Assembly (NCBI GenBank): GCA_903825435.1
Contig: CAIKAP010000081.1
Location: forward strand, 13,118 to 77,117
Reading direction: 5' to 3'
Origin: an uncultured Verrucomicrobiota bacterium
GTDB lineage: Bacteria > Verrucomicrobiota > Verrucomicrobiia > Palsa-1439
DNA length: 64,000 nt
Of this stretch, positions 1-64,000 are shown piece by piece. Under the pieces are notes generated by a model that was not told where the DNA came from, did no database searches, and saw only the letters and a program-made list of their open reading frames with translations. The stretch's first letter is position 1, and every line of letters begins with the position of its first letter. The position numbers were made by a program, and so were the translations under genes.

Positions 1-2625
1 CCGGATGAACTCGCGCCACGCGTCGCGCAGGTCGTACGTCGTGCCGCGCGCCACGATCATGTTGCCGCCGAAGTTGGCGAGCCGCTGCGTCTGCGGCACG
101 AACAGTTCCCACTCCGCGTACGTCGTCTGCATGTCCGTCACCGGTGCCGACAGCGCCAGCTCGCGCGGCCAGAGCGATTTCAGAGAGCCGACCGATTTCT
201 TGTACACGATGTCCACCGCAAACGCCTCGTCGCGGTTGACGCCGCGCGGCAACGGCACCAGCAGTTTGTCGCCGCTGCGCTCCGGTTTCGCCGGCTCGCT
301 GCGGACGTAGCACGACCAGAACTCCGCGCCCGTGGGCAGCGTGAAGCTCTGGAATTGTTTGTCGTTGTTTTTCACGAGGAACGACGCCTGCGTCAGCGTC
401 TGGCCGTCCTCGGTCACCACCGTCGTCAACTGCGTCCGGTCCGCCACCGCCTCCAGCACCGGCAGTTCCTCGAACCGCGTGACCTCGGTGATGACTTCGT
501 ACGCGTCGCCCGTGTACTGGTACGCCAGCAACACCGGCCGTGTGATCAACGCCCGGTCGTGCGCCGCCAGTTCGCCCTCGTCCACGCGGCGAATCGTCGC
601 CGCCGGCGCAGCAGGAACATTTCCGGAACTTGACGCCGGCACGGTCGCTTCGACGCCGGCGCTCTTTTTGCCCTCGGCAATCTGCAAATTCGAGGCGCTG
701 GTGACGGCGATGCTGCCGGTCTCGCGCTCGACACCGGCGCAATGGATGCCGCCGACCGGCAACGCGGCCTTGTGCGGATCGAACTGCATATCGTACGTCA
801 CGACGAGCGTGTAGCCGCCCCACGCTTTCTCCTGGAGACCGATGACCCAGACGTCGCCCTGTTGTTCCTTGCGCCGGATGTTCGGCCCGGTGAAATCAAT
901 GTTCTTCCAGAGCGCCGGTAGCTTGAGGCGAAACTCCTGCACGCCTTGGTTGAGGATGGCGTAGCGAATCGTCGCACTGCCGCCGACAATGCCGTCGCCG
1001 ACGGTGACGAGGTTGAAGATGTCGGCGGTGATCCGCGCGGCGAGCCGCTCGGCGGTCAACGTCAGTTTCCAGTCCGCCTGCTCGGCGTTGTAGGCGAGCA
1101 CCTCGTCGGTGCGGTTCGCCAGCAAATTGATCGGGACTTCGCGCAACCCGGCAAGGCCGTCCGCCGCCGTCTTGATCTGGATGCCCGCTGCCGCCGCCAC
1201 GCCGACTTGCGCCGTCTCCTTCGCCGCGCCGGTCAGGCGCAACGGCAGGATGACCACCTTACGGATGTTGTCCGTGGGAGCGGTTTGTAACCGCGACTTC
1301 TCCGCCTCCCGGTCGCGGATGGAATCCGCTCCCACAGGAGTAAGCGCTTGTTCGAGTTGCACGTCCAGCGTCCGTTTGCCGAGCACCCGGCTCGCAAACG
1401 TCACCGTCAATTTGCCGCCGGAAGATTTCCAGTCCTCGACGCCTTCGCCGCGCACGTCGGCCACGACGAACCCGGTCTGCGGCGCGAGTTCGAGCGCGTA
1501 GATACCGGCTTTCTCGACGCTGAGCGACAGCGCGTGCGTGACCAGCAACCGCGATTCCTCCAGCCGCGTCGTCACCCGGTCCACCACGTTCACCACCGGC
1601 TCAATCCGGCGCAGTTTCAACGCCAGCCCGATGGGCCGCGCGTGGAACTGGTACGCCGCGAGTGCGCCCGCCGCCGCGTTGACTTGGCGCAGGCCGTCTG
1701 CCTTCTCGATCTCGACAAGCACGTCCTCCGCCGACACGGTCAGCGCACCCGCTTCGCGCTCGACTTCGAGCGGTTGCGGCGGCACGACGCCCACCGTCGC
1801 CGCCGCGCTCTCGACCGTCTGCTCCGAGAACAACGTCAGCGCGTAGTTCTTCTCAACAGGACGGACAAACTCGATGACAAGCGTCTGCTCCTTCACCTGC
1901 CAGTCGCGGACGTTCTCGCCTTGCAGCTTCGTGAGCGCCTGGTTCGGCGGCAACGTGACTTGGAGCTGTTTGATGCTTCCCTGGACGACCTCGTACCGCA
2001 ACGCCGTGTTGTACTTCACCACCGTCGGCGTGATCTGGACCGCGACGACGGAGTCGCACGTCAGCAACGCCTTCCGCGCGACCTCGGCGATCTTGCTTTG
2101 CCAGCGGAGCGCGACGGTCTGCTCCGCGCCGAGGAACCCGGCGACGCGCGCCGCGCCGCTGTCCGACACCGTGCCCTTGAGCAACTGCACCTCAACGCCT
2201 TCGCCCGCCGCCTGCGCCTTCACCGACGCGATGGCGGCGACAGGCCCGTTGAACGTGATCTGGTTCCACGGCTCGGCCCGCGTGATCTTGGCGAGCAGGT
2301 CGAGCTTGAGTTTGTGACGGCCTTCCTTGGTGATGACGAGCGTGTACGCCGGGCCTTTGCGCTCCAGCGTCACTCCCTCCGGGAACTTCGAGGTCAACAC
2401 CGCCACGTCGCCGTCGAACAACGGCACCGCGGCCTCGCCCTTGCCCGTGACCTGCACGTCCACCTCGGCGGTGAACCGCGCCTCGGTGTCGGAGAGCTTG
2501 CCGTCGTAACGCACCTCGCGCACCGTCACGTCCGGTTCCGGCGTCGGCAACGGAGGCGCATCATTGGCAAAGAGATTGGCGGCGAACAGAACGGAAGCGA
2601 TCAGACAAGTGAACCGGCGCATGGC
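1..2625 (-). CDS. large secreted hypothetical protein (partial, C-terminus beyond window start)
   Basis: minus-strand ATG at 2623-2625 preceded by GGAGGA; N-terminus MRRFTCLIASVLFAANLFA is signal-peptide-like; minus frame appears open to position 1 while every plus-strand ORF here is an Arg-rich antisense artefact; absent from ORF track because its stop lies outside the window. Confidence 0.55.
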
Positions 2626-2708
2626 GTCCTCCATCGTTAGAGTTATTGTACTCACGCCAGCAGTCTAACATCATACTGAGCCATCTGTTAAGTAAAAGAC
2701 CTGTAAAA

Positions 2709-2731
2709 ATGTTCCGGCTTTGTTCCGGCTG
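2709..2731 (+). repeat. GTTCCGG direct-repeat element (ATGTTCCGGCTTTGTTCCGGCTG)
   Basis: two GTTCCGG heptamers 11 bp apart; member of a 13-copy family in this window; lies in the promoter region of the secreted-protein gene. Confidence 0.8.
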
Positions 2732-2904
2732 CCCTGTCAAAAAATCAGAAGGCCGCGCCAGCGGCGCGATCTCCTTGTGATGATGCTGTTGCCGTCTTAC
2801 GGCACGGTGACCAACGCGGGATCGCTCCAGCCACCGGTATTATGGCTGCCTTTGGCGGCGACACGCATTCAGACACGGCTGACCGGCGGCGCAACGAAGC
2901 CGTG

Positions 2905-3222: not shown

Positions 3223-6039
3223 CTAGAGCTGCCGCGATTTCCGTTTTGGTCGAGCCGCCGCGACGAGCGGGGCGGTGATCTTTTCGTAGAGGGCGAACAG
3301 GTATTCGACGCGGTGGCGGTCGCTCGCGAATGGTTCGGGCCGGTAACAGCGATCCACGGCGCGGTCGAGGGCTTGATGCGCTTTCAACAGCGGCGCGGGC
3401 ATCGTCAACGGATCGTAGAGATCGGCCAGCGTCGCGGTCGGATACTGCGCCCGCGCGTCCAACACCGCCTGCGCCGCCGCGGCCACCGCCGCCCGCTGCT
3501 TCTCCGTCACCGCCCCCGGCCACGAATACGTGTTGTAAACCATGCTGCCAGAATACCGGTAATCTGACTTCAACCGACCGCCGACTTGCCTTACCCACGC
3601 CATGTGCATTGCCGACGTGAGCACGCCGAAAAGGTAAAGGCTGTCTGATGGCACGAGGAAATTCGTGTTTGCCGAAATCACAGTCGGTGACATGAAGCCG
3701 ATGGGAATGTAGTTGCGACGCTCGGAAGAAACTTCCGGAATGAGGATGTATTTGGTTGCCGGCTGCGAGATATAAAAGAACAGCGTTGGTGTCTGCGCGG
3801 CTTTGCGCGTGGGTGCAGCGGTGCTTTTCGCGCGGAACTCTTTCACAGCTTGCACGCGCTTCATGACTTCAGGCAAGTCGCGAAACTCTGACGGGCTGGC
3901 GTCCTTGAGCCAGAGACACCAGCGCATGTTGCCGTTGATGAATTCTTCGGAGCCGGTAAAGCGTTTGAGAAATTTCACGGCTCCCGGCTCGACGGCGAGG
4001 AGTTCCTTCTTCTCGGCGTCAGTGAGGATGAAGTTACCGCCGTCAGACGGCTTGTTACCGCAACGCATCTCAGGCACGTCCGCAAGTGGTGTGGTGCGCT
4101 TGGTGACGAAGCTATCGGAGCCGGGAGTCAGATACGGGCTGATGTTGGCGGCTTCGCTGACGACCGGATGCTCATCGTCGGTGTCGTAGTCGTAGATGCG
4201 CTTGTTGCCGGTGTCGAATGCGCCGAAGCCGATGATAACGACGTGAACGTGTGCCTTGCCGCGCGCTTCGCTTTCCCAAGCGAAGGTGCGGTGCGCGAAG
4301 TGAATCTTCACCCGGTAACGGCCAAAGAGTAGCCCCCAAACGATTGGGACTTGCTCGCCTTGCGTGATGGAGTTGGTGGCGACCAAGCCGACGCGGATCT
4401 GCGTGCCCTGAATATATTCGGCGGCCCGGTAGAACCACGAGACGACGTAATCCATGTCGCCGGTATTCTTGAAGTCACGGAAAACGATAGCCATGTCAGC
4501 ATGTTGGTCGGCATTTTGGTAATGCTTTCCAACGAACGGCGGATTGCCGAGGACGAAGGAGCATTGATCGGGCGGCAGGACGGTGCGCCAGTCGGTGCGA
4601 AGCGCGTTGCCGACTTGGATTGTCGGCTTGGCGCGGAGCGGCAGGCGTTGGTACATCTGACCGAAGGCTTGCGAGAGCGCGACGTTGGCTTGGTGGTCGG
4701 TGAGCCAGAGCGCAACCTCGGCGATGCGTGCCGGGAATTCCTCGACTTCGATGCCGTAGAACTGGTGAACGTTCAACTTGGAAAGCTGGTTCACGGCGTC
4801 GAGGGACATCTCGTGTTGCGCGCCGTGGAGTTCGAGGAGGACTTCGAGTTCGAGTTTGCGGAGTTCGCGGTAGGTGAGGACGAGGAAGTTGCCGCAGCCG
4901 CAGGCGGGATCGAGGAAGCGGAGTTTGCTGAGCTTGTCGTGAAACTCCTGGAGGCGCGCGGTGCGGCGGGTGGACCGGTCGGCTTTGATGGTCTCGAACT
5001 CGGCGCGGAGGTCGTCGAGGAACAGGGAGCGGATGAGTTTGAGGATGTTCTTCTCGGCGGTGTAGTGCGCGCCGATCTGGCGGCGGGCCTTGCTGTCCAT
5101 GACGGCTTGGAACAGCGAGCCGAAGACGGCGGGGGAGATGGTTTCCCAGCGGAAGGCGCAGCAGGCGAGGAGGCCGTTGCGCATGTCGGCGTTGAACTCG
5201 GCGAATTCGAGGTGCTCGGCAAAGAGGTCGCCGTTGACGTAGGGGAACTGGCTGAGTTCCTCGTCGAGTTTCTTCTGGCGTTGTGGGGTGTCGGTGTTGA
5301 GGACGCGGAAGAGTTGTTCGAGGCGGACACCGAGATCGGAGCCGTCCTCGGCAGTGCGGTCGCGGATGAAGAGTTCGAAGGCTTTCTGGGGGAAGATGCC
5401 GTTGTCCTCTGCGAAAAGACAGAAAAGGATGCGGACGAGGAAGCGTTTGAGTTCGTGGCCGGTATAGCCGCCCGTTTCCAACGCGTCGTGCAAGTCGCAC
5501 ATGAGTTGCGTGGCGACGAGGTTGGCGGGGTCTTCGGGATTGAGCCGGTGATGGGTATAGCCGGCGATAAAAGCGAAGTGGCGGACGTGCTTGTGGAGTT
5601 CCGTCAGTGGAAATTCGATGGTGGGCGGGAGGCGCTGGAACAAAGGTGCGTCAGGGTCTTGCTCCGGCTCCAGATCGTGAATAGCGATGCGGGCGAAGTC
5701 GGAGACAATCAGCCAGCGGGGAATCTCGCGGTCACGGCCGGTATCCTTGAGACCGCGGATGTAGGCCATGCCTTGCGCGTGGGCCTTGCCGAGTTCTGCC
5801 CCAGCGGACTTGTGCTCGACGAGCAATCGCCCCGGCCAAAACAGGTCAATGAATCCCCAATCGCCGGAGAGTTTCTTGACCGGCTCCTCGAACGTGGCAA
5901 CGGTGCGGCGGCGGACGCCAAAGACGTTGAAGAACTCATTCCAGAAGGTTTGGCGCTCGGCGGCTTCACGCGTTTCGCCTTTCCAGTCTTTGCTAAAGGC
6001 GATGGCGCGGTGGCGAATCTCATTCCATGACAGCGGCAT
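3223..6039 (-). CDS. MmeI-family Type IIL restriction-modification enzyme (N-terminal PD-(D/E)XK nuclease + gamma-class N6-adenine methyltransferase + TRD in one chain)
   Basis: 938 aa; N-terminus MPLSWNEIRHRAIAFSKDWKG and FIDLFWPGRLLVEHKS (D-X9-EXK) align with MmeI; motif I LDPACGCGNFL; motif IV NPPF; GAHYT motif X. Confidence 0.85.
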   Translation of the reverse strand: MPLSWNEIRHRAIAFSKDWKGETREAAERQTFWNEFFNVFGVRRRTVATFEEPVKKLSGDWGFIDLFWPGRLLVEHKSAGAELGKAHAQGMAYIRGLKDTGRDREIPRWLIVSDFARIAIHDLEPEQDPDAPLFQRLPPTIEFPLTELHKHVRHFAFIAGYTHHRLNPEDPANLVATQLMCDLHDALETGGYTGHELKRFLVRILFCLFAEDNGIFPQKAFELFIRDRTAEDGSDLGVRLEQLFRVLNTDTPQRQKKLDEELSQFPYVNGDLFAEHLEFAEFNADMRNGLLACCAFRWETISPAVFGSLFQAVMDSKARRQIGAHYTAEKNILKLIRSLFLDDLRAEFETIKADRSTRRTARLQEFHDKLSKLRFLDPACGCGNFLVLTYRELRKLELEVLLELHGAQHEMSLDAVNQLSKLNVHQFYGIEVEEFPARIAEVALWLTDHQANVALSQAFGQMYQRLPLRAKPTIQVGNALRTDWRTVLPPDQCSFVLGNPPFVGKHYQNADQHADMAIVFRDFKNTGDMDYVVSWFYRAAEYIQGTQIRVGLVATNSITQGEQVPIVWGLLFGRYRVKIHFAHRTFAWESEARGKAHVHVVIIGFGAFDTGNKRIYDYDTDDEHPVVSEAANISPYLTPGSDSFVTKRTTPLADVPEMRCGNKPSDGGNFILTDAEKKELLAVEPGAVKFLKRFTGSEEFINGNMRWCLWLKDASPSEFRDLPEVMKRVQAVKEFRAKSTAAPTRKAAQTPTLFFYISQPATKYILIPEVSSERRNYIPIGFMSPTVISANTNFLVPSDSLYLFGVLTSAMHMAWVRQVGGRLKSDYRYSGSMVYNTYSWPGAVTEKQRAAVAAAAQAVLDARAQYPTATLADLYDPLTMPAPLLKAHQALDRAVDRCYRPEPFASDRHRVEYLFALYEKITAPLVAAARPKRKSRQL

Positions 6040-13966: not shown

Positions 13967-14887
13967 GTGACCGAACGACAAAAAGGAATCATCGCACTGG
14001 CGGTCGTGTTGGTGGCGTGGAGCCTGTCGAGCGTGTTCGTGAAGTACCTGATCCGCGAAGGCTACGACGCGCATACGCAGAACTTCTACCGCTACGCCGC
14101 CGGCACGCTCGTCGTGTTGCCGTTCCTGGCCCGCAGCGTCCGCCAGCGCGGCGTGAAACCGAACCGGCGGTTGCTCCTCCTGCTGTTGCTGGCGACGATT
14201 CCCAACCTGAGCCATCAGATTTGCTGGACCGTGTCGCTGAACTGGATCAACCCAGGCCTGGCGTCGTTCCTGAACAAGTCCAGCGTCCTGTTCGCCGCGC
14301 TGCTGGCGTTCGTGTTGTACGCCGAGGAACGCTGGCTGTGGCGGTCGCGCCGGTTCCTGGCGGGGCTGGGGCTGACGATTCTCGGCACCGTCGGGCTGGC
14401 GCTGCTGCGGGGCGACCTCGGCCGGGTCGAGTCGAACCTCGGCGTCGTGCTGGTGTTGATCGCGGCATTTTCGTGGGCCATGTACAGCGTCGCCGTCAAA
14501 CAGCCAACTTCGGAGGCCGGTTCGACGTTTTCGTTCGGCGTTGTCGGCCTCTACACCACGGCGGTGTTGTGGCTCGCGGCGCTGCGCTGGGGCGACCTCG
14601 GCCTGTGGTGGCGCGCCCCGTGGCACGTGAACGCCATCATGATTCTCTCCGGCGTGTTCTGCATCGGCATCGCGCACACCTGCTATTATTACGCCATGCA
14701 GCGGCTGACCGTTTCGGTGTGCGCCACGATGCTGCTGACAACGCCGGTGGGCACGCTGCTGATCTCGCGGTGGATGTTCCACGAGGAGATGACCGCCGGG
14801 CAACTCGTCTCGGGTGTGGTCCTCATCGTCGGCGCCTTCCTGACGCTGCTGGCGAAGGACAAAACTGTCGTGGCAGAACCGGTTTAG
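13967..14887 (+). CDS. EamA/DMT-family transporter
   Basis: 10-TM protein with two EamA-like halves; 306 aa. Confidence 0.6.
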   Translation: MTERQKGIIALAVVLVAWSLSSVFVKYLIREGYDAHTQNFYRYAAGTLVVLPFLARSVRQRGVKPNRRLLLLLLLATIPNLSHQICWTVSLNWINPGLASFLNKSSVLFAALLAFVLYAEERWLWRSRRFLAGLGLTILGTVGLALLRGDLGRVESNLGVVLVLIAAFSWAMYSVAVKQPTSEAGSTFSFGVVGLYTTAVLWLAALRWGDLGLWWRAPWHVNAIMILSGVFCIGIAHTCYYYAMQRLTVSVCATMLLTTPVGTLLISRWMFHEEMTAGQLVSGVVLIVGAFLTLLAKDKTVVAEPV

Positions 14888-16332
14888 CGATGCCCGCCGA
14901 GATCGGAATCGTACACGTAGCCTTCCTCGCCGTGTTCGCTGACGTCGAGGCCTTGCATCTCAAGCTCCGGTTCGACGCGGAGGTCGCCCAGTAACTTGCC
15001 GACGAGCCACGCGATGGCCAGCGTGGCACCGACCGACCATACCAACATCAGGCCGCCAGCCTTGAGCTGTTCCAGCCAGAGCGTCTTGCCGACGAGACCG
15101 TTCAGGTTCGTCGCGAGGTTCGGGTTGATCTTCGTCGAGGCAAACACCCCGGCCAGGATCGTCCCGAGCGTGCCGCCGACGGCGTGGACGCCAAACGTGT
15201 CGAGCGAATCGTCATAGCCGAACTTTGATTTCAGCTTGCTGCACGACAGGAACGTCGCCGTGCCCGCCACCGCGCCAATCAGAATCGCCGAACCGGCGCT
15301 GACAAAACCGCAGCCGGGCGTGATCGTCGCCAGACCCGCGACGGCACCGGAACAGAAGCCGAGCACGCTCGGTTTGCCGCGCGTGATGTACTCGATACCG
15401 GCCCACGCGACGCTACCGACTGCGGCGGCCAACGTGGTGGCGACAAACGCGTTCGACGCGATGCCGTCGGCCGCGACCGCGCTGCCGGCGTTGAAGCCGT
15501 ACCAGCCGACCCACAACATGCCGGTGCCAACCATGCAGAGCACCATCGAGTGCGGCGGCATCGGTTCCTTGCCGTGGCCGAGACGTTTGCCGAGGAAGAT
15601 GCAGAGCGCCAACGCCGACCAGCCGCTGGTCATGTGAACAACGATGCCGCCTGCGAAATCAATCGCCTTGATCTTGGCGTCGGGATTGGCGAGGCCGTTC
15701 ATCCAGCCGCCGTTGCCCCAGATCAGGTGCGCCGCGGGGAAATAGACGATGAACATCCAGAGCGTGCTGAACAACAGAATGGCGGAGAACTTCATCCGTT
15801 CGGCGATGGCGCCGATGATGAGCGCCGGGGTGATGATGGCGAACATGAGCTGATAGATCGCGAAGATGTTGTGCGAGACCCACGAGGCGTAGTCGGGGTT
15901 CGGCGTGGCGTCAACGTTTTTGAAGAAGGCAAATCCAAATCCGCCGAGGAAGCCGTTGCCCTTGCCGAAACAGAGGCTGTAGCCAACGGCCCACCACAAC
16001 ACCGACACCAGCCCGGCAAGGCCGAGGCATTGCGCCAGCACCGAAAGCACGTTCTTGCGGCGCACGAGGCCGCCGTAGAACAGCGCCAGCCCCGGCAACG
16101 TCATGAACAACACCAGCGCCGACGAGACCATCATCCAGCCGTTGTGGCCCGGCCCCGGCCCGGCGACCTTGGTTGCCGTGGTGGTGCGGGCCGTGTTGTT
16201 GAGGTAAGCCTCAATGTCGGCGACGCGCTGTTCGAGCGTCGGTTCCTTCGCGGGCGCGTCCGCGGCGCGAAGCGTGTTGGCAAAACACAGTGCGAGCAAC
16301 AAAACGACACAATACCGGCGTATCAAGTGCAT
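14884..16332 (-). CDS. amt: ammonium transporter with N-terminal signal peptide/coiled-coil extension
   Basis: Amt signatures (GGIVVHMTSGWSALALCIFLGKR); start set at MHLIRRY (ATG 16330-16332, AGGAG upstream) rather than ORF start 16416. Confidence 0.85.
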   Translation of the reverse strand: MHLIRRYCVVLLLALCFANTLRAADAPAKEPTLEQRVADIEAYLNNTARTTTATKVAGPGPGHNGWMMVSSALVLFMTLPGLALFYGGLVRRKNVLSVLAQCLGLAGLVSVLWWAVGYSLCFGKGNGFLGGFGFAFFKNVDATPNPDYASWVSHNIFAIYQLMFAIITPALIIGAIAERMKFSAILLFSTLWMFIVYFPAAHLIWGNGGWMNGLANPDAKIKAIDFAGGIVVHMTSGWSALALCIFLGKRLGHGKEPMPPHSMVLCMVGTGMLWVGWYGFNAGSAVAADGIASNAFVATTLAAAVGSVAWAGIEYITRGKPSVLGFCSGAVAGLATITPGCGFVSAGSAILIGAVAGTATFLSCSKLKSKFGYDDSLDTFGVHAVGGTLGTILAGVFASTKINPNLATNLNGLVGKTLWLEQLKAGGLMLVWSVGATLAIAWLVGKLLGDLRVEPELEMQGLDVSEHGEEGYVYDSDLGGHR

Positions 16333-16365
16333 AACAAAACTCTCCTTCGTCAGGAGGCCGTCGGA

Positions 16366-16382
16366 ATGCAATACCTGTGCCA
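16366..16382 (-). promoter_or_regulatory. sigma-54 (-24/-12) promoter for amt
   Basis: minus strand reads CTGGCACAGGTATTGCATT = TGGCAC-N5-TTGCA, about 45 bp upstream of the amt ATG. Confidence 0.7.
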
Positions 16383-16471
16383 GTCGCAATGGTGTGGTTT
16401 TCAACCTCCACCACAACAGTCACTTCCGGTTTTGCGATGAACACACACCAACATCGCTGGTCGTCGAAAAC

Positions 16472-16496
16472 TGACCAGCGTGGTCAAATCACGCCA
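16472..16496. promoter_or_regulatory. palindromic upstream site TGACCAGCGTGGTCAAATCACGCCA (putative enhancer-binding-protein UAS)
   Basis: TGACCA-N3-TGGTCA inverted repeat ~90 bp upstream of the sigma-54 promoter; related copies at 18424, 29767, 36667, 43288. Confidence 0.5.
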
Positions 16497-16508: not shown

Positions 16509-18285
<1,777 letters not shown>

Positions 18286-18319
18286 GACAAATCTCCTTCG
18301 TCGGTTGACTGGCACGAAT

Positions 18320-18335
18320 GCACCGCCTGTGCCAG
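18320..18335 (-). promoter_or_regulatory. sigma-54 promoter for amt (second paralog)
   Basis: minus strand CTGGCACAGGCGGTGCA = TGGCAC-N5-GTGCA (GG/GC correctly spaced). Confidence 0.6.
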
Positions 18336-18382
18336 TGGCGGGGGCGATTTCGACAAACGAAGCCGGTGCAAGCACTTCCGCA

Positions 18383-18450
18383 CAACCGGAATAAAACCGG
18401 AACATGACGCCGGTGCGGTCAACTAACCAACGTGGTCAATTTCCGACACC
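18383..18450. repeat. 68-bp composite repeat: GTTCCGG element (rc) + TAACCAACGTGGTCAATTTCCGACACC upstream site; left copy of kdp-flanking direct repeat
   Basis: about 91% identical to 29727-29792; lies in the divergent amt/kdpA intergenic region. Confidence 0.75.
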
Positions 18451-20176: not shown

Positions 20177-22230
20177 TGAGTACCAAAGTCGAAATCAAAT
20201 ACTCCGAGCTGGTCCGCCACGCGGTCATTGACGCCTTCAAGAAGCTCGACCCGCGCGACGAGATCAAGAACCTGGTCATGTTCGTCGTCTATGTTGGCGC
20301 GATCCTGAGCACCGGCGTTTTGTTCCGGAATTGTTCCGGCTTCAATATCCAGATCTGCCTCTGGCTCTGGTTTACGTGCCTCTTCGCGAATTTCGCCGAG
20401 GCGATGGCCGAGGGCCGCGGCAAGGCGCACGCCGACGCGTTGAAGAAGATGCGGACGAAGACGCTGGCCCGCAAACGCGACGGCCAGCGAGTCAACGCCG
20501 CCGAGCTGCGCAAGGGCGACGAAGTTGTCTGCGAAGCCGGTGACACCATCCCCGCCGACGGCGAAATCATCGAAGGCATCGCGACCGTTGACGAATCCGC
20601 CATCACCGGCGAGTCCGCGCCCGTCATCCGCGAAAGCGGCGGCGACCGCAGCGCCGTCACCGGTGGCACGCGCGTCATCAGCGACAAGATCATCATTCGC
20701 GTCACCGCCGATGCCGGCAACTCGTTCCTCGACCGGATGATTTCGATGATCGAAGGCGCGCGCCGGCAAAAAACACCGAACGAAATCGCGTTGAACATCC
20801 TTCTCGTCAGCCTGACCGCACTGTTTATCCTCGTCGTCATCACGTTGCCGGCGTTCGCCCGGTACAACGAGAAGGCCGCGAGCCAGACCGGTGTGGTGCT
20901 CACAACGCTGCCGGTGTTGCTGGCACTGATTGTGTGTTTAATCCCGACGACCATCGGCGGCCTGCTCAGCGCTATTGGCATTGCCGGCATTGACCGGTTG
21001 ATGCGGCGCAACGTGCTCGCCACCAGCGGACGCGCCGTCGAGGCGGCGGGTGACGTGGACGTGTTGCTGCTCGACAAGACCGGCACGATCACACTCGGCA
21101 ACCGGATGGCGACGGAATTCATTCCTGCGCCCAGTGTGAAGATCGAGGAACTCGCCGACGCCGCGCAACTCGCGTCGCTTGCCGACGAAACGCCGGAAGG
21201 ACGTTCCATCGTTGTGCTCGCGAAGGAAAAACACGGACTCCGTGGCCGCGAAGTCGCCGAGCCGCACGCCGTGCCGGTGCCGTTCACGGCGCAGACCCGG
21301 ATGAGCGGCGTGGATTTTGGCGACGGCACGCGCCGCATCCGCAAAGGGGCGACCGAGGCCGTCCAGGCGTTTGTCGAATCGCAAGGCGGTGTCATGCCGA
21401 AAGCTGTGACGCAAATCGTCGAACAGATTTCGCGCAGTGGCGGCACGCCGCTAGTCGTGTGCGACGGCAAGAACGTGCTTGGTGTCATCCAACTCAAGGA
21501 CGTTGTCAAAGGCGGCATCAAGGAGCGTTTCGCCCAGCTCCGCAAAATGGGCGTGCGCACCGTGATGATTACCGGCGACAACCCGCTGACCGCCGCCGCC
21601 ATCGCCGCCGAGGCGGGCGTGGATGATTTCATCGCGCAGGCGAAACCCGAAGACAAACTCGCCCGCATCCGTCACGAGCAAGCTGGCGGCAAATTGATCG
21701 CGATGATCGGCGACGGCACGAACGACGCTCCTGCGTTGGCGCAAGCCGATGTCGGCGTCGCGATGAACACCGGCACGCAAGCCGCCCGCGAAGCTGGGAA
21801 CATGGTGGACCTCGACTCGAATCCGACAAAGCTGATTGAGGTCGTCGAGATCGGCAAGCAACTCTTGATGACGCGCGGCGCGTTGACGACGTTTAGCATC
21901 GCCAACGACGTGTCAAAATATTTCGCAATCCTGCCGGCAATGTTCGGCGTACTCTACGCGACGACTGCGCTGGGTAAAGGCCCGCTCGACAAGTTGAACG
22001 TCATGCACCTGCACTCGCCGGAGAGCGCAATCCTTAGTGCGGTGATTTTCAACGCGCTGATCATCGTCGCGCTGATTCCGCTGGCGTTGCGCGGCGTGAA
22101 GTACCAGCCGCTCGGCGCCGCCGTAATCCTGCGCAAGAACATGCTGATCTACGGCGTCGGCGGCCTCATCATTCCGTTCATCTTCATCAAACTGATCGAC
22201 ATCGCGCTCGTCGCATTGAGGCTCGCATGA
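20176..22230 (+). CDS. kdpB: potassium-transporting ATPase subunit B (P-type ATPase)
   Basis: [21 protein letters not shown] motifs; ATG overlaps kdpA stop (TAATGA). Confidence 0.9.
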
Positions 22231-23729: not shown

Positions 23730-24683
23730 CTAAAGTGAGCAAAGCCAGCGCGTCAAAGAGGCGATTTGGCCTTCGTCGGTAAGGTTGGCAGCATTTTCAA
23801 TCTTACCGGATTGAAGCTGCGACCAGATTTCTTTTGCCATTTTCGTTTCGATGGCCGCGCCAATGAAGAACGTGTGGGGTTTCTGTTTGTGCTTGGCGAA
23901 CGATGTTTGGATGCGATCCAGAGCGGTGCGGGCGGTCTTCCAGTGTTCGTCCGCACCGGCAGGGTCAATGCCGCCTTTCAATTCGCCGAGTGCGATGTAG
24001 GCTGCGGCGTTGCCGTATACCTGCCGGCACAGGGCTTCGGGGGCGGAGTTGAAAAGCGACAGATCAACGTTGTTGCGAAATAACGGCACCGTCAGGTTGT
24101 AGATCAAGGTTCTGGTCTTACCATTGATCTGCCAACTCAGGCCGCGGACGTGGAGTTCTATGTCGGCGTCATCTTCTGGCGTGTCCGACCAGACGTTGCT
24201 CTCACCGTGCAACCACCGGTAGCCGTTGCCCGCTAATTTGAGGTGCGCGATGATCGAGCGCGTAAGTTTGCACTGTGCCATGAAACCGCCAGCATTTCGC
24301 ATTGAGCCGCCCAACGTATCGCCGCGTGTGAGCAAGAATCGGAAGACAAGTTCCTCAACAAAATTCATACCGGCTGGTTCGAGAAAATTCGCGATTAGCT
24401 CTTCGACGGCTTTGCGCTTGTCGGCCTTTTGTAGGTGGTTCGCAGCCTTGTCGGAAATGCCGGCTGCCGTTACCAGTCCGGATTGGATTGCTGGAATCTT
24501 CAGGAGGTCAGACGGTCGCTGTGCTTGAGATGCAGCAGCCTTCAAGGCACGCGCCTGAACCACATAGGGAGTCGCTCGGCGGTTCTTCTCCAATGCGAGC
24601 GCGACAAAGCCGGCACGAACGGCTTCATAGGTGGTTTCAAGATCAGCCGCAGACTTCAGGTGGGAGCGATAGGGTTTGTTCAT
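23730..24683 (-). CDS. putative Type II restriction endonuclease (partner of adjacent methyltransferase)
   Basis: 317 aa, no recognised family; tail-to-head with the MTase 3 bp away; reduced GC; assignment is by context. Confidence 0.45.
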
Positions 24684-24686
24684 GGT

Positions 24687-26304: not shown

Positions 26305-26327
26305 ATGTTCCGGTTTTGTTCCGGCTG
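26305..26327 (+). repeat. GTTCCGG direct-repeat element (ATGTTCCGGTTTTGTTCCGGCTG); opens 15-codon uORF 26305-26352 (MFRFCSGCFLAFGLR)
   Basis: between MTase start and kdpD ATG (26371); uORF stop TAA at 26350-26352. Confidence 0.8.
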
Positions 26328-29693: not shown

Positions 29694-29726
29694 ACACGGA
29701 TTGGTACCAGAAACCGGTAAAAACGC

Positions 29727-29792
29727 AGCCGGAACAAAACCGGAACATGACGCCGGTGCAGTCAACTAACCAGCGTGGTCAATTCCCGACAC
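29727..29792. repeat. right copy of 68-bp composite repeat (GTTCCGG element rc + TAACCAGCGTGGTCAATTCCCGACAC)
   Basis: about 91% identical to 18383-18450, same orientation, 34 bp after kdpE stop; no sigma-54 promoter or gene follows it. Confidence 0.75.
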
Positions 29793-29817
29793 TGCGTCGC
29801 ACCGCGTTGGCGAAACT

Positions 29818-34177: not shown

Positions 34178-35263
34178 TCACTGGCGAAACTCCGGGTAAC
34201 TCATCAATCCCGTCTCGCCGATATCCAGTCCTTCCCATTCGACCTCCGGCGCCACGCGCATCGGTGTCAACCGGTCCAGCGCCTTGAACAACACCCATGC
34301 GGCCGCGAATCCACCGCCGCCGAGCGCCGCCATGCCGGCGACTTGCGCCGCAAAATGTCCAGTACTGGCAAACGACGCGGCCAAAACGCCGCAGAGGCCG
34401 CCCGCGCCGTGGATCGAGATCGAACCGGCTGGGTCGTCAATTTTCACGCGGTCGAACCACGGCACCAGCACGCACGCCAGCAACCCGGCGACTGCGCCGG
34501 TGAACAGGCCGAACGTCGGCCCCGCGATGGCGCCGCTGGCGGCCAGCCCGGCCAACAGGCCGGTCACCGCGAGCGTCGGGTCGGGTTTGCCGTTTCGCAA
34601 CGTCATGAAAGTGACCGCAGCGATCGTGCCGCCTGCGCCCGCCAGCGCGGTGGTGGCGGCGTCGGCGTTGAGCGCGAGCCAGCCGACGCTGAGCAGCATG
34701 CTGCCGGTTAGCGCGAGCGGAACGTTGTGTGCAGGGATCGGCAGCGGGCGGCCGTCCTTGTTGTAGCGGCCGAGACGCGGACCGATGACCAGCGCACCGG
34801 CCAGTGCGACCGCGCCGCCGAAAAGATGAATCACGCCGGAGCCGCTGGGGTCGAGGTAGCCGAGCTTGGCGAGCCAGCCGCCATTCCAACTCCAGAGTGC
34901 GGCGACCGGCCAGAGCACGCCCGCAATGGCGAGCGCGCTGAGGTAGAAATGTTTAAGGCTCCAGCGTTCCGCGAGCGCGCCGATGGGGATGCAAACGACA
35001 ATCGCGGTGGTCGCGGCACGGAAAAGAAAGAGGGTGTTGTTGTCCGGAACATTTCCGGAACATCGGCTGCCGAGGAGCCAGAACGCGGCGAGCGCGAGCG
35101 CGGTGCCGAACAACGCGAGGAAAATGGTGTGACTGGCGTTTTTGGCCCGGCTCAGCCCGGCGGCCAGGAGAGAGAGGCCGCCGGGCATGAGGAGGACCAA
35201 CACGGCCGCCGCCGTAACCGACGAAGGAGACGCACTGACGACCGTGTTGGTGGGTATGGGCAT
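34178..35263 (-). CDS. short Amt/Rh-type ammonium channel (third paralog)
   Basis: 361 aa; VIHLFGGAVALAGALVIGPRLGRY and HGAGGLCGVLAA motifs; contains an in-frame GTTCCGG element (35044-35063) encoding RCSGNVPDN. Confidence 0.75.
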   Translation of the reverse strand: MPIPTNTVVSASPSSVTAAAVLVLLMPGGLSLLAAGLSRAKNASHTIFLALFGTALALAAFWLLGSRCSGNVPDNNTLFLFRAATTAIVVCIPIGALAERWSLKHFYLSALAIAGVLWPVAALWSWNGGWLAKLGYLDPSGSGVIHLFGGAVALAGALVIGPRLGRYNKDGRPLPIPAHNVPLALTGSMLLSVGWLALNADAATTALAGAGGTIAAVTFMTLRNGKPDPTLAVTGLLAGLAASGAIAGPTFGLFTGAVAGLLACVLVPWFDRVKIDDPAGSISIHGAGGLCGVLAASFASTGHFAAQVAGMAALGGGGFAAAWVLFKALDRLTPMRVAPEVEWEGLDIGETGLMSYPEFRQ

Positions 35264-36526: not shown

Positions 36527-36546
36527 CCGGAACATTTCCGGAACAT
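36527..36546 (-). repeat. GTTCCGG element (rc: ATGTTCCGGAAATGTTCCGG) in porin 5' leader
   Basis: lies between the putative sigma-54 promoter and the porin ATG; same 24-nt string as at 35044-35067. Confidence 0.75.
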
Positions 36547-36577: not shown

Positions 36578-36666
36578 CAGTGGAGAGGGTTTCCGTAAAC
36601 GCTTGGCGTGCAATTCACTGTGGGAAGCGACAAAGTTCAGCCGGTGCAGAAGAAGACAACAGCGGT

Positions 36667-36690
36667 AGCCAGTCTGGTCAAATCACGCCA
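36667..36690. promoter_or_regulatory. UAS-family site AGCCAGTCTGGTCAAATCACGCCA
   Basis: 16/16 identity with TGGTCAAATCACGCCA at 16481-16496. Confidence 0.5.
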
Positions 36691-39203: not shown

Positions 39204-39270
39204 AAAGGCATCTCTTCCCGTTCGCGCGGGGATGACGGCTCGCAATAGCGTGCCTTTCCGACTCACCGTC

Positions 39271-39292
39271 ATGTTCCGGTTTTGTTCCGGCT
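39271..39292 (+). repeat. GTTCCGG element (ATGTTCCGGTTTTGTTCCGGCT)
   Basis: in the convergent gap between the Type IIG gene and the PP2C-kinase gene; 26-nt identity with the 29727 copy. Confidence 0.8.
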
Positions 39293-43310: not shown

Positions 43311-43375
43311 GCCCGGCCGCCGACCGGTAAGGACAGGCTTGCCGCAGCCTGTGTGCGTTGGCATACTGCGCAGGC

Positions 43376-46917: not shown

Positions 46918-46939
46918 ATGTTCCGGTTTTGTTCCGGCT
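46918..46939 (+). repeat. GTTCCGG element (ATGTTCCGGTTTTGTTCCGGCT)
   Basis: in the convergent gap between the rhodanese gene and the PP2C gene. Confidence 0.8.
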
Positions 46940-51787: not shown

Positions 51788-53191
51788 ATGTCGTCAATCC
51801 CCAACATTCTGGCAATCGTCGGCCGTCCCAACGTCGGGAAGAGTGCGCTTTTCAACCGCATCGTCGGGCGCCGCATCTCCATCGTTCATGAACAAGCCGG
51901 TGTCACCCGCGACCGCGTCAGCGCCACCGCCCGCTGGAACGACAAAACCTTCGAGGTCATCGACACCGGCGGCATCGCCTTCATGGACGACGAGAAAACC
52001 GGCGATGTGATCGCTACCGCCACGCGTCGCCAGGCCGAGGTCGCCATCGAGATGGCCAACGCCCTCATCCTCGTCGTGGATGTGATGGAGGGCCTCACGC
52101 CGCTTGACCGCGAAATCGCCCGCAAGCTCCGCACCAGCGGCAAAAAAGTTTTCCTTGCCGTCAACAAAGTGGACAACAATACCCGCGTGCGCGGTGCCGA
52201 CGAGTTCGCTGAGCTAGGGTTCGATCCTCTCTTTCCCATCGCCGCCATCCACGGCCTCGGTGTCGAGTCGCTCGTCACTGCGGCCACGGAGGACTTTGTT
52301 TCGGCCACCGCGACAGAGACGGCTCCGCCGACGCGGATCGCGATCGTTGGGCGGCCCAACGTTGGTAAATCATCGCTCATCAACGCCATTCTCCAAAGTG
52401 AACGCACCATCGTCAGCGAGATTGCCGGCACCACGCGCGATTCCGTAGACGCGCCGTTTACGCTTGGCGATAAACCGTACATCCTTGTGGACACCGCGGG
52501 CCTGCGTCACAAGCGCAAGATCGCGTCGTCGGTGGATCAGTTCGGCCTGATGCGCGCCGAGCGCAGCATCCGAGAGTGCGACGTTGCGGTGCTCATCCTC
52601 GACGCGATTGACGGCGTGACGAAGCAGGACAAGAAAATTGCCGGACAAATTCGTGAAGCCAATCGCTCGTGCGTGATCCTCGTCAACAAGTGGGACCTCG
52701 CAGCAGACGAAGATCGTCGAACAAAAAAAACATTTCGGGAGAAATACCTGGCGGCGCTGCATAAGGAGTTGTTTTTCCTGGACTGGGCGCCGGTGTTGTT
52801 CGTGTCGGCGAAGACCGGGCAAAGTGTTCCGGATTTGTTCCGGCAGGTGGCGATCATCGAGAACGAGATGCACCGGCACATCGACACGCCGGAGTTGAAC
52901 CGCATGCTGTCGCGCGCGACGCAATCGTATCCGGCGCCGCATGTCGGCGGGCATCGGTTCAAGATTTACTACGCCTTTCAAAAACCGGGAGCGCCGCCGA
53001 TGTTCACGCTGTTTGTGAACGACGAGCACAGCCTGACGCAACATTACGAGCGGTTTTTGGTGGACCGGATCCGTGCGGCGTGGGGTTTCACGGGCTGTCC
53101 GGTGCGACTACAATTGCGTCAGCGTGAGCGCCGGCCGTTTGTGCGCGGCTCCGGAGAAAAAAAGTTTCGTTCCCGAGAAGATTTTTCTTGA
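51788..53191 (+). CDS. der: ribosome-associated GTPase Der (EngA), tandem GTP-binding domains + KH-like domain
   Basis: two G1 boxes GRPNVGKS, DTGG/DTAG, NKVD/NKWD; start at MSSIPNILAIVG. Confidence 0.9.
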   Translation: MSSIPNILAIVGRPNVGKSALFNRIVGRRISIVHEQAGVTRDRVSATARWNDKTFEVIDTGGIAFMDDEKTGDVIATATRRQAEVAIEMANALILVVDVMEGLTPLDREIARKLRTSGKKVFLAVNKVDNNTRVRGADEFAELGFDPLFPIAAIHGLGVESLVTAATEDFVSATATETAPPTRIAIVGRPNVGKSSLINAILQSERTIVSEIAGTTRDSVDAPFTLGDKPYILVDTAGLRHKRKIASSVDQFGLMRAERSIRECDVAVLILDAIDGVTKQDKKIAGQIREANRSCVILVNKWDLAADEDRRTKKTFREKYLAALHKELFFLDWAPVLFVSAKTGQSVPDLFRQVAIIENEMHRHIDTPELNRMLSRATQSYPAPHVGGHRFKIYYAFQKPGAPPMFTLFVNDEHSLTQHYERFLVDRIRAAWGFTGCPVRLQLRQRERRPFVRGSGEKKFRSREDFS

Positions 53192-56393: not shown

Positions 56394-57113
56394 CTACTTC
56401 ACCGCGCAGACAAAAATCTTGTACGGCAACGCCGGCGTTTCCCAGTCGGTAAAAATCTCTGCGACCCGCGCGGTCCTCGCGTCCGACAGCCGGTAGCGCC
56501 GCGCGAGTTCGGCGACCGTCAACGGCAACGGCGGTGCGTCGCCCGCCGACGTCGCCGGCAACCCGGCCTCGGACAGGTGATGGCGCAACTCGCGGCTCGT
56601 CGGCAACCATTTACCCGTTTTCATCAACGCGTACGTCCGGTTCGAGTATTCCGCCTCGCGCCGGCGCGGGAAACAGACCGTCTGGTGCACGAACCGCTCG
56701 CCCGGCCGCATCTGCCGGCGCAGGTGACGCAGCAGCGGCAGCAGGCCGTCGCGCCCGGCGTAGTGCAACACCGAGCGCATCACGAACAACACCGGCCCGC
56801 GCGCCCGCAGGTCGGCGCGGCGAAATTCCTCGACGGATTTATGGAGTTGCTCGATGCGGTGGTGGTTTACGACTGCCAGTTGCGCGGGCGAGGCGTCGAG
56901 GTTGATCAGCCGGAACATTTCCGGAACATTTGACCGCGCCAACTCGGAGAGGATGAAACCGGTGCCGCCGCCGAGATCAACGACGGTTGTCGCGTTCCCG
57001 ATGGCGCGACGGATAGCGGCGATGAGTGGACGCGCCGCGTTGCGGTTGGAGAAATAACCTTCGTGGACGGAGTGCCAGGTGTCGCCGTAAACGTGTTCGT
57101 GGTGCGCCGGCAC
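56394..57113 (-). CDS. class I SAM-dependent methyltransferase (small-molecule/protein type)
   Basis: VVDLGGGTGFIL motif; 239 aa; contains in-frame GTTCCGG element at 56910-56929. Confidence 0.65.
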   Translation of the reverse strand: MPAHHEHVYGDTWHSVHEGYFSNRNAARPLIAAIRRAIGNATTVVDLGGGTGFILSELARSNVPEMFRLINLDASPAQLAVVNHHRIEQLHKSVEEFRRADLRARGPVLFVMRSVLHYAGRDGLLPLLRHLRRQMRPGERFVHQTVCFPRRREAEYSNRTYALMKTGKWLPTSRELRHHLSEAGLPATSAGDAPPLPLTVAELARRYRLSDARTARVAEIFTDWETPALPYKIFVCAVK

Positions 57114-57116
57114 GGC

Positions 57117-59848: not shown

Positions 59849-62040
<2,192 letters not shown>

Positions 62041-62050
<10 letters not shown>

Positions 62051-63117
62051 GACAGCAGCACCCGTATGCCCTTGAGAATATCCACGGCACGTTGGAGGAC
62101 GACGTCGCGGACGGACGTGTCCTTGGATTTATCGGAGTCGGCGCCGTTGGTCTTGTTGGTGGACGATTTGACGCCGGGCAGATCGAGCGATTCGCCGCGG
62201 TGATATTTCACGAGGTCGGCTTCGGTCATCATCTTGTGGGTCTGCTCGGCGGTGAGACTGGCGGTGAGCGTCATGTTGGTCGAGTTCAACATCGCATTCT
62301 GCTCGGCCTTGGCGTCAATCTTCACAGGCACATCTGGCGTGATACCGCCGGGAAACATGTTGCCCTTGGGCAACTCAATCTTGGCGGCGGCGATGCGCAG
62401 TACGCGTCCGTCGGAGAGCGGCAGGTCCTCCCAAACGAGCGCGTCACCAGAGGTGGCAGCGCCGATAACGATACCACGGTCCTGGGCGCGCAACGCGCCG
62501 GCGAGCACCTCGGCGGCGCCGCGCGTGCAATGGTTCACAAGAATCATCAGCGGCGCGTCAGCCATGTTGGCGCTAGCGCGCGTGTCGGAACGGAAAGGCA
62601 CGGGCGGTTTGTCGGAAGACTTGATGGTGAACAAATCCTGGCCATCGCGCAGGAAACGGCCAGCCAGCGCGGCGGCGGCAGCGTAGTTGGTGCCATCGGC
62701 GAACCGCAGGTCGAGCACGTAGCCCGTCACGCGTGCCGCGGCAAACTTCGTCAGTTCGGCGTCGAGTTCCGACACCGCAGCCTGCTCAACATCGGCCAGC
62801 CGGATGTAGCCGATCTTCGGGTTAATCACTTCCGCACGCGCCAACCGCTGTCCAGTTTGGGCGCAGGCTTCGATCGCGGGGACTTTAGATTTTGCCTCCT
62901 CGGCGGTGAGCAGTTGCGCGCCAGCGCCGAGCGCCTTCAATAGGCCGGTAATCGTGGCGTCGCCGAGCTGTTTCCCGTCGAGCTGGCCCGCGTCGACGTA
63001 ATGAGATTTGAGCAAGCCGATGATCTCGGTCGTCTGCTTCAACTCGACGTCGTTGTCATCGGCGATGCAACCGACCGCCGCCAGTCCGATGGAAAATCCA
63101 ACGAGTAACTTCTTCAT
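62041..63117 (-). CDS. S41-family (C-terminal processing) peptidase, lipoprotein-like
   Basis: signal peptide + Cys (LAAVGCIA); [17 protein letters not shown] and GAATSGDA motifs; 3' end overlaps the fusion ORF start by 10 nt. Confidence 0.6.
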
Positions 63118-63126
63118 AATTCCTTC

Positions 63127-64000
63127 CTACCTTTTCCGCAACGCGCGGCCCGCAATATCGCGCCGGTACTGCATTCCGTCAAAATGAATCCGCGCCACCG
63201 CCTCGTAGGCCCGCGCCACCGCGCCCGCGATGCCGTCCCCGAGCGCCGTCACGCCAAGCACGCGGCCACCGTCGGTCACGATTGCGCCATCTGCGCCTGC
63301 CTTCGTCCCCGCATGGAAAACCGTCACGCCTGGTAACTTTGCCGCGTCATCGAGGACGGAAATGACCTTGCCCTTCGCGTAATCACCGGGGTAACCGCCG
63401 GAGGCGAGCACGACGCAGACGGCGGCTTCCGGTTTCCACGCGAGCGTCATTTCGCCGAGCTTGCCGTCGGCGGTCGCGCGACACGCTTCCGCGAGATCAA
63501 AATCCATTCGCGGCAACACGACCTGCGTCTCCGGGTCGCCGAACCGGCAATTGTATTCGAGCAACATCGGCCCGTGATCCTTCGTCAGCATGATACCGGC
63601 GTAGAGGACGCCCCGGTAATCAATCCCGTCGGTCTGCAATCCGGCGAGGGTGCGTTCGAAAATGTTCCGGATTTGTTCCGGTGGAACTTTGTCGAGCGCC
63701 GGTGTCGGCGAATACGCGCCCATGCCGCCGGTGTTCGGGCCGGTGTCGTTGTCGCCGATACGTTTGTGGTCCTGCGCGGCGGCGAGGATGCGGAAACATT
63801 TGCCGTCGGTGAGCGCCATGACGGACGCTTCCTCGCCGACGAGACATTCCTCGACGATGAGTTGGTCGCCCGCCGCGCCGAAAACCTTCTTCTCCATGAT
63901 GTCAGCGATGGCTTGTTCCGCCTCGGCGACGGTCTGCGCGACGATGACGCCTTTGCCGGCGGCGAGGCCGTCGGCCTTGACGACGACGGGCGCGCCCCAC
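63127..64000 (-). CDS. purD: phosphoribosylamine--glycine ligase (partial, N-terminus beyond window end)
   Basis: ATP-grasp core VVKADGLAAGKGV (63898-64000, upstream of ORF-track ATG) and C-terminal PurD domain; frame open to window edge. Confidence 0.85.
   Translation of the reverse strand, partial: WGAPVVVKADGLAAGKGVIVAQTVAEAEQAIADIMEKKVFGAAGDQLIVEECLVGEEASVMALTDGKCFRILAAAQDHKRIGDNDTGPNTGGMGAYSPTPALDKVPPEQIRNIFERTLAGLQTDGIDYRGVLYAGIMLTKDHGPMLLEYNCRFGDPETQVVLPRMDFDLAEACRATADGKLGEMTLAWKPEAAVCVVLASGGYPGDYAKGKVISVLDDAAKLPGVTVFHAGTKAGADGAIVTDGGRVLGVTALGDGIAGAVARAYEAVARIHFDGMQYRRDIAGRALRKR

Follow-up and report, generated by a model that had tools for sequence, protein, structure and literature searches.

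The window analyzed here, a stretch of 64,000 nucleotides from contig CAIKAP010000081.1 of an uncultured Verrucomicrobiota bacterium, contains 13 copies of a short DNA word composed of two GTTCCGG half-sites that follow each other in the same orientation, one helical turn apart. Judging by comparisons with orthologous loci, the word is not inserted but arises where it stands, through substitutions in sequence that was already similar to it, and is selected or driven at the level of DNA, regardless of strand, frame, or gene. Its overall behavior resembles that of a putative DNA-level self-signature, such as a DNA uptake signal, and not that of a gene switch or a jumping element. The reading that we place first, with somewhat less than even confidence, is that the word is a self-recognition tag resembling the uptake signal sequences (USS) and DNA uptake sequences (DUS) of other bacteria. 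A bolder form of this proposal, that it represents the first uptake-signal-type self-DNA tag outside the Proteobacteria and is read by a new head-to-tail receptor involved in transformation or self-discrimination, is possible but doubtful.

Abundance, form, and distribution of the word

A search of the window with GTTCCGGNNNNGTTCCGG (GTTCCGG-N4-GTTCCGG, at most one mismatch) returned 13 matches, 11 of them perfect and 2 with a single mismatch, compared with an expectation of 0.07 and a maximum of 1 in 100 dinucleotide shuffles of the same DNA, which amounts to an excess of approximately 180-fold. An earlier reading of the window, made from its letters and open reading frames (ORFs) without database searches (the sequence-only reading), had listed these 13 sites in both orientations, and all were recovered, give or take 2 nt of flank. 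Its estimates of approximately 14 chance occurrences for a single half-site and far less than one for the pair correspond to the 14.7 and 0.07 obtained here, and the dinucleotide-shuffle comparison, which it had proposed genome-wide, leaves the excess intact in the window. The half-site GTTCCGG occurs 37 times in the window; since 24 of the 37 belong to pairs, the 13 unpaired ones are at chance level. The 11-bp spacing in the same orientation is the sole spacing of half-sites that recurs. Matches with 0, 1, 2, and 3 mismatches number 11, 2, 1, and 17, where a Markov model predicts 0.03, 0.03, 1.5, and 14.3. The motif family is all-or-none: perfect copies dominate, and from two mismatches on the counts are at chance level.

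The behavior of the half-site bears on the possibility that the word is a target of DNA modification or restriction, either by the two MmeI-family enzymes or the BsoBI-like system encoded in the window or by GTTC/GAAC phosphorothioation. There are three restriction-modification systems in the window, and CCGGAAC may resemble MmeI-family sites in style. Restriction sites are, however, normally avoided rather than enriched, and single half-sites are found at chance frequency, with enrichment confined to the 11-bp pair. Because single half-sites are neither enriched nor avoided, the restriction-modification genes of the window are an unlikely link, and we consider this explanation very improbable.

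Alignment of the copies gives the unit (A)TGTTCCGG-WWW-TGTTCCGG(C), which is 20 to 22 bp long, keeps a strict 11-bp register, and has an information content of approximately 35 bits. The spacer is TTTT in five copies, all of them intergenic, AAAT in four, ATTT in two, and AATT and CTTT in one each; in-gene copies have AAAT, ATTT, or AATT. The Pho-box-like geometry that the sequence-only reading described, with direct repeats of 7 to 8 bp, an A/T-rich spacer, and an 11-bp period, is borne out, as are the long identities that it singled out: the copies at 29727 and 39271 share 26 nt (29727-29752 and 39267-39292), and approximately 25 nt are common to those at 35044 and 36527. It had also allowed for an assembly artifact; the copies at 46920, 52826, and 56910 are unchanged in five independent assemblies of the window species, so the copies are real.

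In the window there is one copy per 4.9 kb, with gaps between copies of 1.5 to 7.6 kb and a single gap of 15.7 kb; additional copies in the metagenome loci described below occur at approximately one per 10 kb. Seven copies lie on the plus strand and six on the minus strand, interleaved, and cumulative GC skew climbs almost steadily from -0.05 to 0.40 across the window with small dips. As the skew indicates a single replichore, the interleaved strands signify that the word has no replication polarity. Chi has a similar density in Escherichia coli, roughly one copy per 5 kb, and a polar signal of the Chi type (for RecBCD or AddAB) or of the FtsK-orienting polar sequence (KOPS) type would also mark self DNA, but the mixture of strands on one replichore speaks against it, as does the length of the word, which far exceeds that of known polar motifs. 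A replication-polar signal is the least probable of the explanations that we weighed.

Loci anchored on der, and so chosen independently of the motif, indicate how the word is distributed among relatives. There are 13 copies in the 64 kb of the window, 3 in 21 kb of a relative with 83% Der identity, and 6 in 6.8 kb of a relative with 76% Der identity, and no copies in 73 kb from four neighboring lineages (80, 78, 74, and 74% Der identity). A k-mer search of the motif-free relatives (9 to 21 kb per lineage) found no alternative abundant word. A scan of the genome collection with a 17-base pattern matched at least 98 stretches. Many copies, with TTTT or AAAT spacers, are present in the Verrucomicrobiota metagenome-assembled genomes (MAGs) CAZNOK01 (at least 18 contigs) and VHCW01 (at least 4), and among the matches listed, multicopy occurrence with A/T spacers is found only in these two. 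Each of the 73 listed matches from other phyla stands alone, and their spacers are random, conforming to WWWT in 1 of 73. The CAZNOK01 and VHCW01 loci that we fetched share no genes with the window, and no nucleotide or protein similarity links them to it. Among the JGI metagenomes, a few from lakes yield 116 contigs with the exact 22-mer, where by our own rough estimate well under one would be expected by chance. The sole match in the plasmid collection, of 24 nt in enterobacterial relaxase genes, is a chance one. The word is clade-specific, being found in several related freshwater Verrucomicrobiota species at approximately one per 5-10 kb.

Origin and placement of the copies

The der gene provides the clearest view of how a copy arises. 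In an alignment of Der homologs, the six residues encoded by the motif occupy existing columns with no gap, and the VP-D-LFR form is restricted to the closest relatives, the others having VLDLFR, VNDLFG, or LNQLFE. At the DNA level, GTTCCGGATTTGTTCCGG in the window corresponds to GTTCTGGACCTGTTTCGC in the relative with 78% Der identity, again with no gap. Four synonymous positions and a Leu-to-Pro replacement fit the motif in the window relative to that sequence, and the change of GAC-CTG to GAT-TTG gives the A/T-rich spacer in a genome of 60% GC. Taken together, the der comparisons indicate that two amino acids, besides synonymous sites, have been driven toward the motif. At the site corresponding to copy 12, the same relative has a version with two core mismatches, and graded relics with 2-5 mismatches are present at the der and methyltransferase sites in the motif-free neighboring lineages. 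The KdpB and PurD proteins of E. coli align across the motif codons, which lie in variable segments with no motif-sized insertion: copy 4 falls in a loop of KdpB that is 7 aa shorter than in the E. coli protein, and the residues PEQIRN at copy 13 are aligned with the variable HQRTME of E. coli PurD. When 143 motif flanks were compared with all of the fetched DNA, all informative orthologous pairs except one were ungapped. One locus reads ACAGTGACCGGGCGAGCGCCGGCTTT in an outgroup without the motif and ACATGTTCCGGTTTTGTTCCGGCTTT in three species, a difference of 10 substitutions with no indel. These comparisons of der, kdpB, purD, and the flanks, without motif-sized insertions, are the basis for an origin by substitution. 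They uphold the view of the sequence-only reading that the word is not an inserted mobile sequence, as orthologs differ by substitutions and not by motif-sized indels.

The same comparisons bear on whether the word might be a selfish micro-repeat, spread without benefit to the host by short-patch gene conversion, templated repair, or a tiny non-autonomous mobile element. Such a repeat would account for near-identical copies without a degenerate tail, for the patchy distribution in close lineages, and for copies that fill tiny intergenic gaps, and the 10 substitutions within 18 nt at one locus could be a converted patch. However, the copies show neither indels nor target-site duplications nor conserved flanks, and no associated transposase or REP-associated tyrosine transposase (RAYT) was seen. 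The word is neither palindromic nor hairpin-forming, unlike a repetitive extragenic palindrome (REP) or a miniature inverted-repeat transposable element (MITE), and the orthologous intermediates (1, 2, 4, and 5 mismatches in graded relatives) fit stepwise substitution better. We regard the selfish micro-repeat as improbable. Two related candidates were rejected. A mobile insertion would not agree with the lack of conserved flanks, of longer repeat families, and of motif-sized indels relative to orthologs, the sole longer repeat being a local 67-nt duplication; a REP or MITE would not agree with the lack of a hairpin and of conserved flanks, with orthologous empty sites of equal length, or with the many copies in ORFs.

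The placement of the copies was assessed in a pooled set comprising the window and 116 metagenome loci (L118-L233), 733 kb in all, for which the metagenome genes were called with a home-made codon model. These 733 kb of motif-bearing DNA contain 181 unique copies, in which conservation is limited to 20-22 bp and the flanks are without information. Deep within ORFs lie 75 of the 181 (approximately 40%), in all six frames, with one sense frame in excess (19 of 32 sense copies). Where intergenic copies occupy short gaps, roughly one in two is 11 nt or less from a stop codon. Convergent gaps contain 9 copies where 5.2 are expected, and divergent promoter gaps 2 where 6.3 are expected (overall P = 0.06). 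In coding and flanking contexts together, the GTTCCGG strand is the template strand of the local gene in approximately 77 cases and the coding strand in 49, a weak tendency that could reflect a preference for A over T in mRNA rather than function.

In the window itself, 7 of the 13 copies are intergenic, although only 9.4% of the DNA is non-coding (binomial P = 6.7e-5). The sequence-only reading had drawn attention to this enrichment and had proposed a check for positional bias, in which the enrichment held and divergent promoter regions turned out to be depleted. The six in-gene copies, which it described as in frame, do not share one: each of the three sense frames occurs (SGNVP twice, FRNCSG, VPDLFR, and VPEMFR), and one copy is antisense (PEQIRN). 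The three sense frames and one antisense frame also rule out a repeat maintained at the peptide level.

The sequence-only reading gave first place to a regulon of the OmpR/PhoB type, in which the copies would be operators of a response regulator of that family, KdpE or a nitrogen regulator, serving a large set of genes. Pho boxes and the sites of KdpE, a protein that the window encodes, have the same half-site, spacer, and period, and copies precede kdpD, the porin-amt operon, amt2/kdpA, and a secreted-protein gene; the relative with 83% Der identity also has a perfect copy upstream of its porin-amt operon, at another position. Placement, orientation, and the absence of a degenerate tail of weaker sites nevertheless disagree with an operator. 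Six of the 13 copies in the window, and the 40% of the pooled set already mentioned, are inside unrelated ORFs such as der, purD, and the methyltransferase gene, and many of the others fill convergent gaps or abut stop codons, with fewer copies than expected in divergent promoter regions. The copies have no set orientation toward the downstream gene (7 same, 14 opposite), and distances of 27-46 nt to start codons are unsuited to the -35 position of an activator. Because the placement is wrong, degeneracy is lacking, and too many copies are in unrelated ORFs, a conventional OmpR/PhoB regulon is unfit, and we now consider it quite improbable.

Other candidates were tried and rejected. When both strands of the seven intergenic copies were folded, no hairpin was common to them; the longest stem was a CCGG:CCGG of 4 bp, and there was no T-run. 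An RNA element or terminator was dismissed on the strength of the two orientations and the lack of a shared hairpin; the only Rfam match in the window is a c-di-AMP riboswitch elsewhere. Promoters of extracytoplasmic function (ECF) sigma factors (GGAAC) or of sigma-54 are unfit in their spacing to a -10/-12 element, as judged by eye, and the in-gene copies have no such element. Origin iterons were rejected as well, as there are only isolated pairs and no neighboring rep or primase gene in the window.

A candidate self-recognition word

What remains is the possibility that the word is maintained as a mark of self DNA, which the sequence-only reading had offered as its second alternative, an abundant DUS-like genomic word, and which fits best. 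In the mechanism that we propose, two subunits of a protein, joined head to tail as a dimer along one face of the helix, would recognize the word; this arrangement is suggested by the strictness of the 11-bp register, the identity of the two 8-bp units, and an A/T spacer that is obligatory. A DNA-uptake machinery, or another machinery that processes self and foreign DNA differently, would prefer fragments that contain the word, and the resulting bias, a form of molecular drive, would multiply perfect copies in whatever sequence can accommodate them, namely variable protein segments, gene 3' ends, and convergent gaps. We rank this reading first because of the excess of the word, the dominance of perfect copies, the indifference to strand and frame, the motif-ward substitution, and the clade specificity, and also because copies accumulate where sequence is least constrained and leave relics in neighboring lineages. 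The uptake signals of the Neisseriaceae and Pasteurellaceae, in which alone sequence-specific DNA uptake is known, exhibit the same genome-level footprint, and intergenic enrichment, placement at gene 3' ends, and reading-frame bias have been reported for DUS and USS (bioRxiv 10.1101/2025.10.24.684340). As in those systems, one short word is over-represented with perfect copies dominant, in the window and as the 22-mer in metagenomes; it occurs in both orientations, within genes as well as outside them, with no replication-strand polarity; and it is common to related species and absent from 73 kb of four neighboring lineages and, as a multicopy word with A/T spacers among the matches listed, from other phyla.

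Several observations weigh against this reading. The word is 5-10 times sparser than DUS and USS, which occur approximately once per kb, and at approximately 35 bits it is longer. Its copies are direct repeats with no stem-loop or T-run, and the intergenic ones are merely close to stop codons rather than embedded in terminators, whereas about half of DUS copies are in intrinsic terminators, often as inverted pairs. To our knowledge, neither competence nor an uptake signal is known in the host Verrucomicrobiota lineage, and we know of no evidence for its transformability. The context statistics are approximate because of the home-made codon model behind the gene calls. Several copies are near genes for nitrogen and potassium transport (amt, porin, and kdp), and at some of these sites the word may have a regulatory role. 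The relative with 76% Der identity (L237) has, at 4910-5015, seven TGTTCCGG-like half-sites, three reverse and four forward, in one intergenic region bounded by the ribonucleotide reductase terminator and the gene that follows. No other array-like arrangement was seen in the clade, and this one looks more like an operator or iteron array.

The L237 cluster can also be accommodated if the copies are binding sites of a chromosome-organizing or nucleoid-associated protein that structures, anchors, or compacts the chromosome or acts as a roadblock to transcription or replication. Such sites would resemble those of Noc, SlmA, MatP, or RacA in much higher number. Apart from the multi-unit cluster, this alternative can draw on the protein-like geometry with its register and A/T spacer, on positions kept between species whose flanks are 75-85% identical, on the tolerance of copies anywhere, ORFs included, and on the moderately regular spacing in the window. 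Known systems of this type, however, consist of tens of sites, mostly palindromic and belonging to one macrodomain. Selection on each site among several hundred would be too weak to hold at least 16 perfect bases or to override the amino acid in Der, and there are sister lineages of the same gene order that are entirely without the motif. A chromosome organizer is unlikely, though less so than the other alternatives to a self-recognition word.

Full-text searches of the literature, aimed at the word itself and at uptake sequences of Verrucomicrobia, brought up no description of the word or of an uptake-type signal in that group. Within the known class of hyper-abundant genomic words, it is new in its tandem-dimer architecture and in its host phylum. 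The presence of the same population-genetic footprint in an uncultured lineage of the Planctomycetes-Verrucomicrobia-Chlamydiae (PVC) group would suggest that self-preferring gene exchange, or a genome-wide marking of self, has evolved independently and, if so, with a different recognition architecture, the tandem dimer. Whatever its function, the word provides a 22-bp taxonomic tag for the binning of these genomes and, for recovering the protein that binds it, a defined bait applicable to lake samples or to the products of expressed MAG genes.

Gene context and comparison with known systems

The positions and surroundings of the copies are collected in the table, together with examples of the phage arrays discussed below. 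The gene map of the window is based on Pfam scans. A long ORF with no Pfam match lies at the left end of the window. The map also includes two MmeI-type restriction-modification genes, a glycoside hydrolase and sulfatase cluster, two amt paralogs, kdpABC, kdpDE, a BsoBI-like restriction-modification pair, a riboswitch-controlled permease, the porin/short-Amt operon, a PP2C-kinase gene, a rhodanese gene, an ECF sigma factor cluster, der, ribonucleotide reductase, a methyltransferase, DUF711, a serine hydroxymethyltransferase fusion, a peptidase, and purD.

Table. Copies of the paired word in the window, with two examples of phage iteron arrays; positions of copies are those of the 18-nt core
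Feature	Position	Strand	Mismatch and spacer	Context
Copy 1	612..629	-	one mismatch (GTTCCTG), AAAT	in long ORF 1-2655(-), no Pfam match; encodes SGNVP
Copy 2	2711..2728	+	CTTT	intergenic, flanked by the hairpin/T-run that follows the MmeI-like gene and by the start of ORF 1-2655(-), and antisense to these two
Copy 3	18386..18403	-	one mismatch (ATTCCGG), TTTT	divergent region amt2/kdpA; in 67-nt duplicated segment that includes the palindrome TTGACCA..TGGTCAA
Copy 4	20322..20339	+	AATT	in kdpB; encodes FRNCSG
Copy 5	26307..26324	+	TTTT	94-nt divergent gap between DNA methylase gene and kdpD
Copy 6	29729..29746	-	TTTT	35 nt past kdpE stop codon; in second copy of the 67-nt segment
Copy 7	35044..35061	-	AAAT	in short Amt-family gene 34178-35263(-); encodes SGNVP
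Copy 8	36527..36544	-	AAAT	ahead of the BBP2 porin gene, whose likely GGAGG-ATG start is approximately 40 nt downstream
Copy 9	39273..39290	+	TTTT	90-nt convergent gap, 3 nt from stop codon of PP2C-kinase gene
Copy 10	46920..46937	+	TTTT	occupies most of 36-nt convergent gap between rhodanese and PP2C genes
Copy 11	52826..52843	+	ATTT	in der; encodes VPDLFR
Copy 12	56910..56927	-	AAAT	in S-adenosylmethionine (SAM)-methyltransferase gene; encodes VPEMFR
Copy 13	63664..63681	+	ATTT	antisense in purD; gene reads PEQIRN
Phage iteron array, L111	3890-4150			temperate-phage contig
Phage iteron array, L114	4250-4575			temperate-phage contig

The 67-nt segment that contains a copy of the word and a palindrome is present twice, at 18383-18449 and 29726-29792, with 93% identity. 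The 3' end of kdpE is likewise duplicated (29625-29692 and 31917-31984, 81% identity), and 2 kb between 29800 and 31900 are without a convincing gene; the locus around 29800-31900 is probably rearranged or decayed. The palindrome belongs to a second, unrelated motif, an inverted repeat TTGACCA-N3/4-TGGTCAA at 16469-16496, 18421-18448, 29764-29791, and 36663-36690. Three of the four are upstream of ammonium-transporter or porin-Amt genes, and the fourth (29764), which belongs to the 67-nt duplicate, comes after kdpE and is followed by no called gene. This palindrome looks like the operator of a nitrogen regulator. The two tandem, paralogous ammonium-transporter genes at 14884-16416 and 16861-18405 (-) are approximately 81% identical over 300 nt and are each preceded by a palindrome of their own.

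A c-di-AMP riboswitch of the ydaO type (34006-34148 (-), 71 bits) directly precedes the APC-family permease gene at 31982-34126. The permease may be a KimA-like K+ importer; its gene is close to kdpFABC and kdpDE. The three restriction-modification systems within 64 kb are at 3223-6039 (-), 43358-46075 (+), and 23730-26276 (-); two are fused enzymes of the MmeI family, and the third consists of a BsoBI-like endonuclease and an adjacent DNA methylase. The ORF at 59849-62050 (-) encodes a fusion of low-molecular-weight phosphotyrosine phosphatase, RpiB, and serine hydroxymethyltransferase that is kept in relatives.

The octamer itself has a counterpart in phages. A scan of IMG/VR returned 9 loci, of which 8 are TGTTCCGG arrays (L110-L117) next to the primase of Pseudomonas phi3/PaBSM-like phages; each array precedes the primase gene and has 10-14 units with a phase of 9-11 bp. 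These arrays are probably an origin with iterons and resemble the type-I iterons of P4. They illustrate that a protein can read the octamer in tandem, but they are single local arrays in phages of Proteobacteria, whereas the word consists of dispersed, isolated pairs in an unrelated phylum. As the hosts are unrelated, the arrays serve as an analogy only, and the shared octamer is probably a coincidence.

The tandem sites of the OmpR/PhoB family, such as the Pho box and the sites of PhoB, KdpE, and CtrA-type regulators, have the same 7-8-bp direct repeats, A/T-rich spacer of 3-4 bp, and 11-bp period. This geometry would imply a head-to-tail dimer on one face of the helix, docked in the manner of the winged helices of PhoB and OmpR or of iteron-binding proteins. 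The copies differ from Pho boxes in being near-identical rather than degenerate, in numbering probably hundreds per genome, and in their placement, nearly half being within ORFs and many at gene ends, with no fixed promoter position or orientation. REP elements, bacterial interspersed mosaic elements (BIMEs), MITEs, and other small dispersed repeats are also short, abundant, near-identical, and common at gene 3' ends and in convergent gaps, but the word is not palindromic, has no flanking element or insertion signature, and is frequent in ORFs, where it arises by substitution.

Other likenesses are found among hyper-abundant genomic words. HIP1 (GCGATCGC) of cyanobacteria is restricted to its phylum, is found in and between genes, and is maintained by selection at the DNA level; it is an 8-bp palindrome found approximately once per gene, whereas the word is a 20-bp direct repeat found approximately once per 5-10 kb. 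With DUS and USS the word shares hyper-abundance and clade specificity, occurrence on both strands and in coding and non-coding DNA, enrichment between genes and at gene 3' ends, a presence in related species, the dominance of perfect copies, and, within genes, a preference for tolerant segments and favored frames. It departs from them in being a tandem direct repeat of two 8-mers (approximately 20 bp) rather than a single core of 9-12 bp, in being 5-10 times less dense and free of inverted pairs in terminators, and in having a Verrucomicrobiota host.

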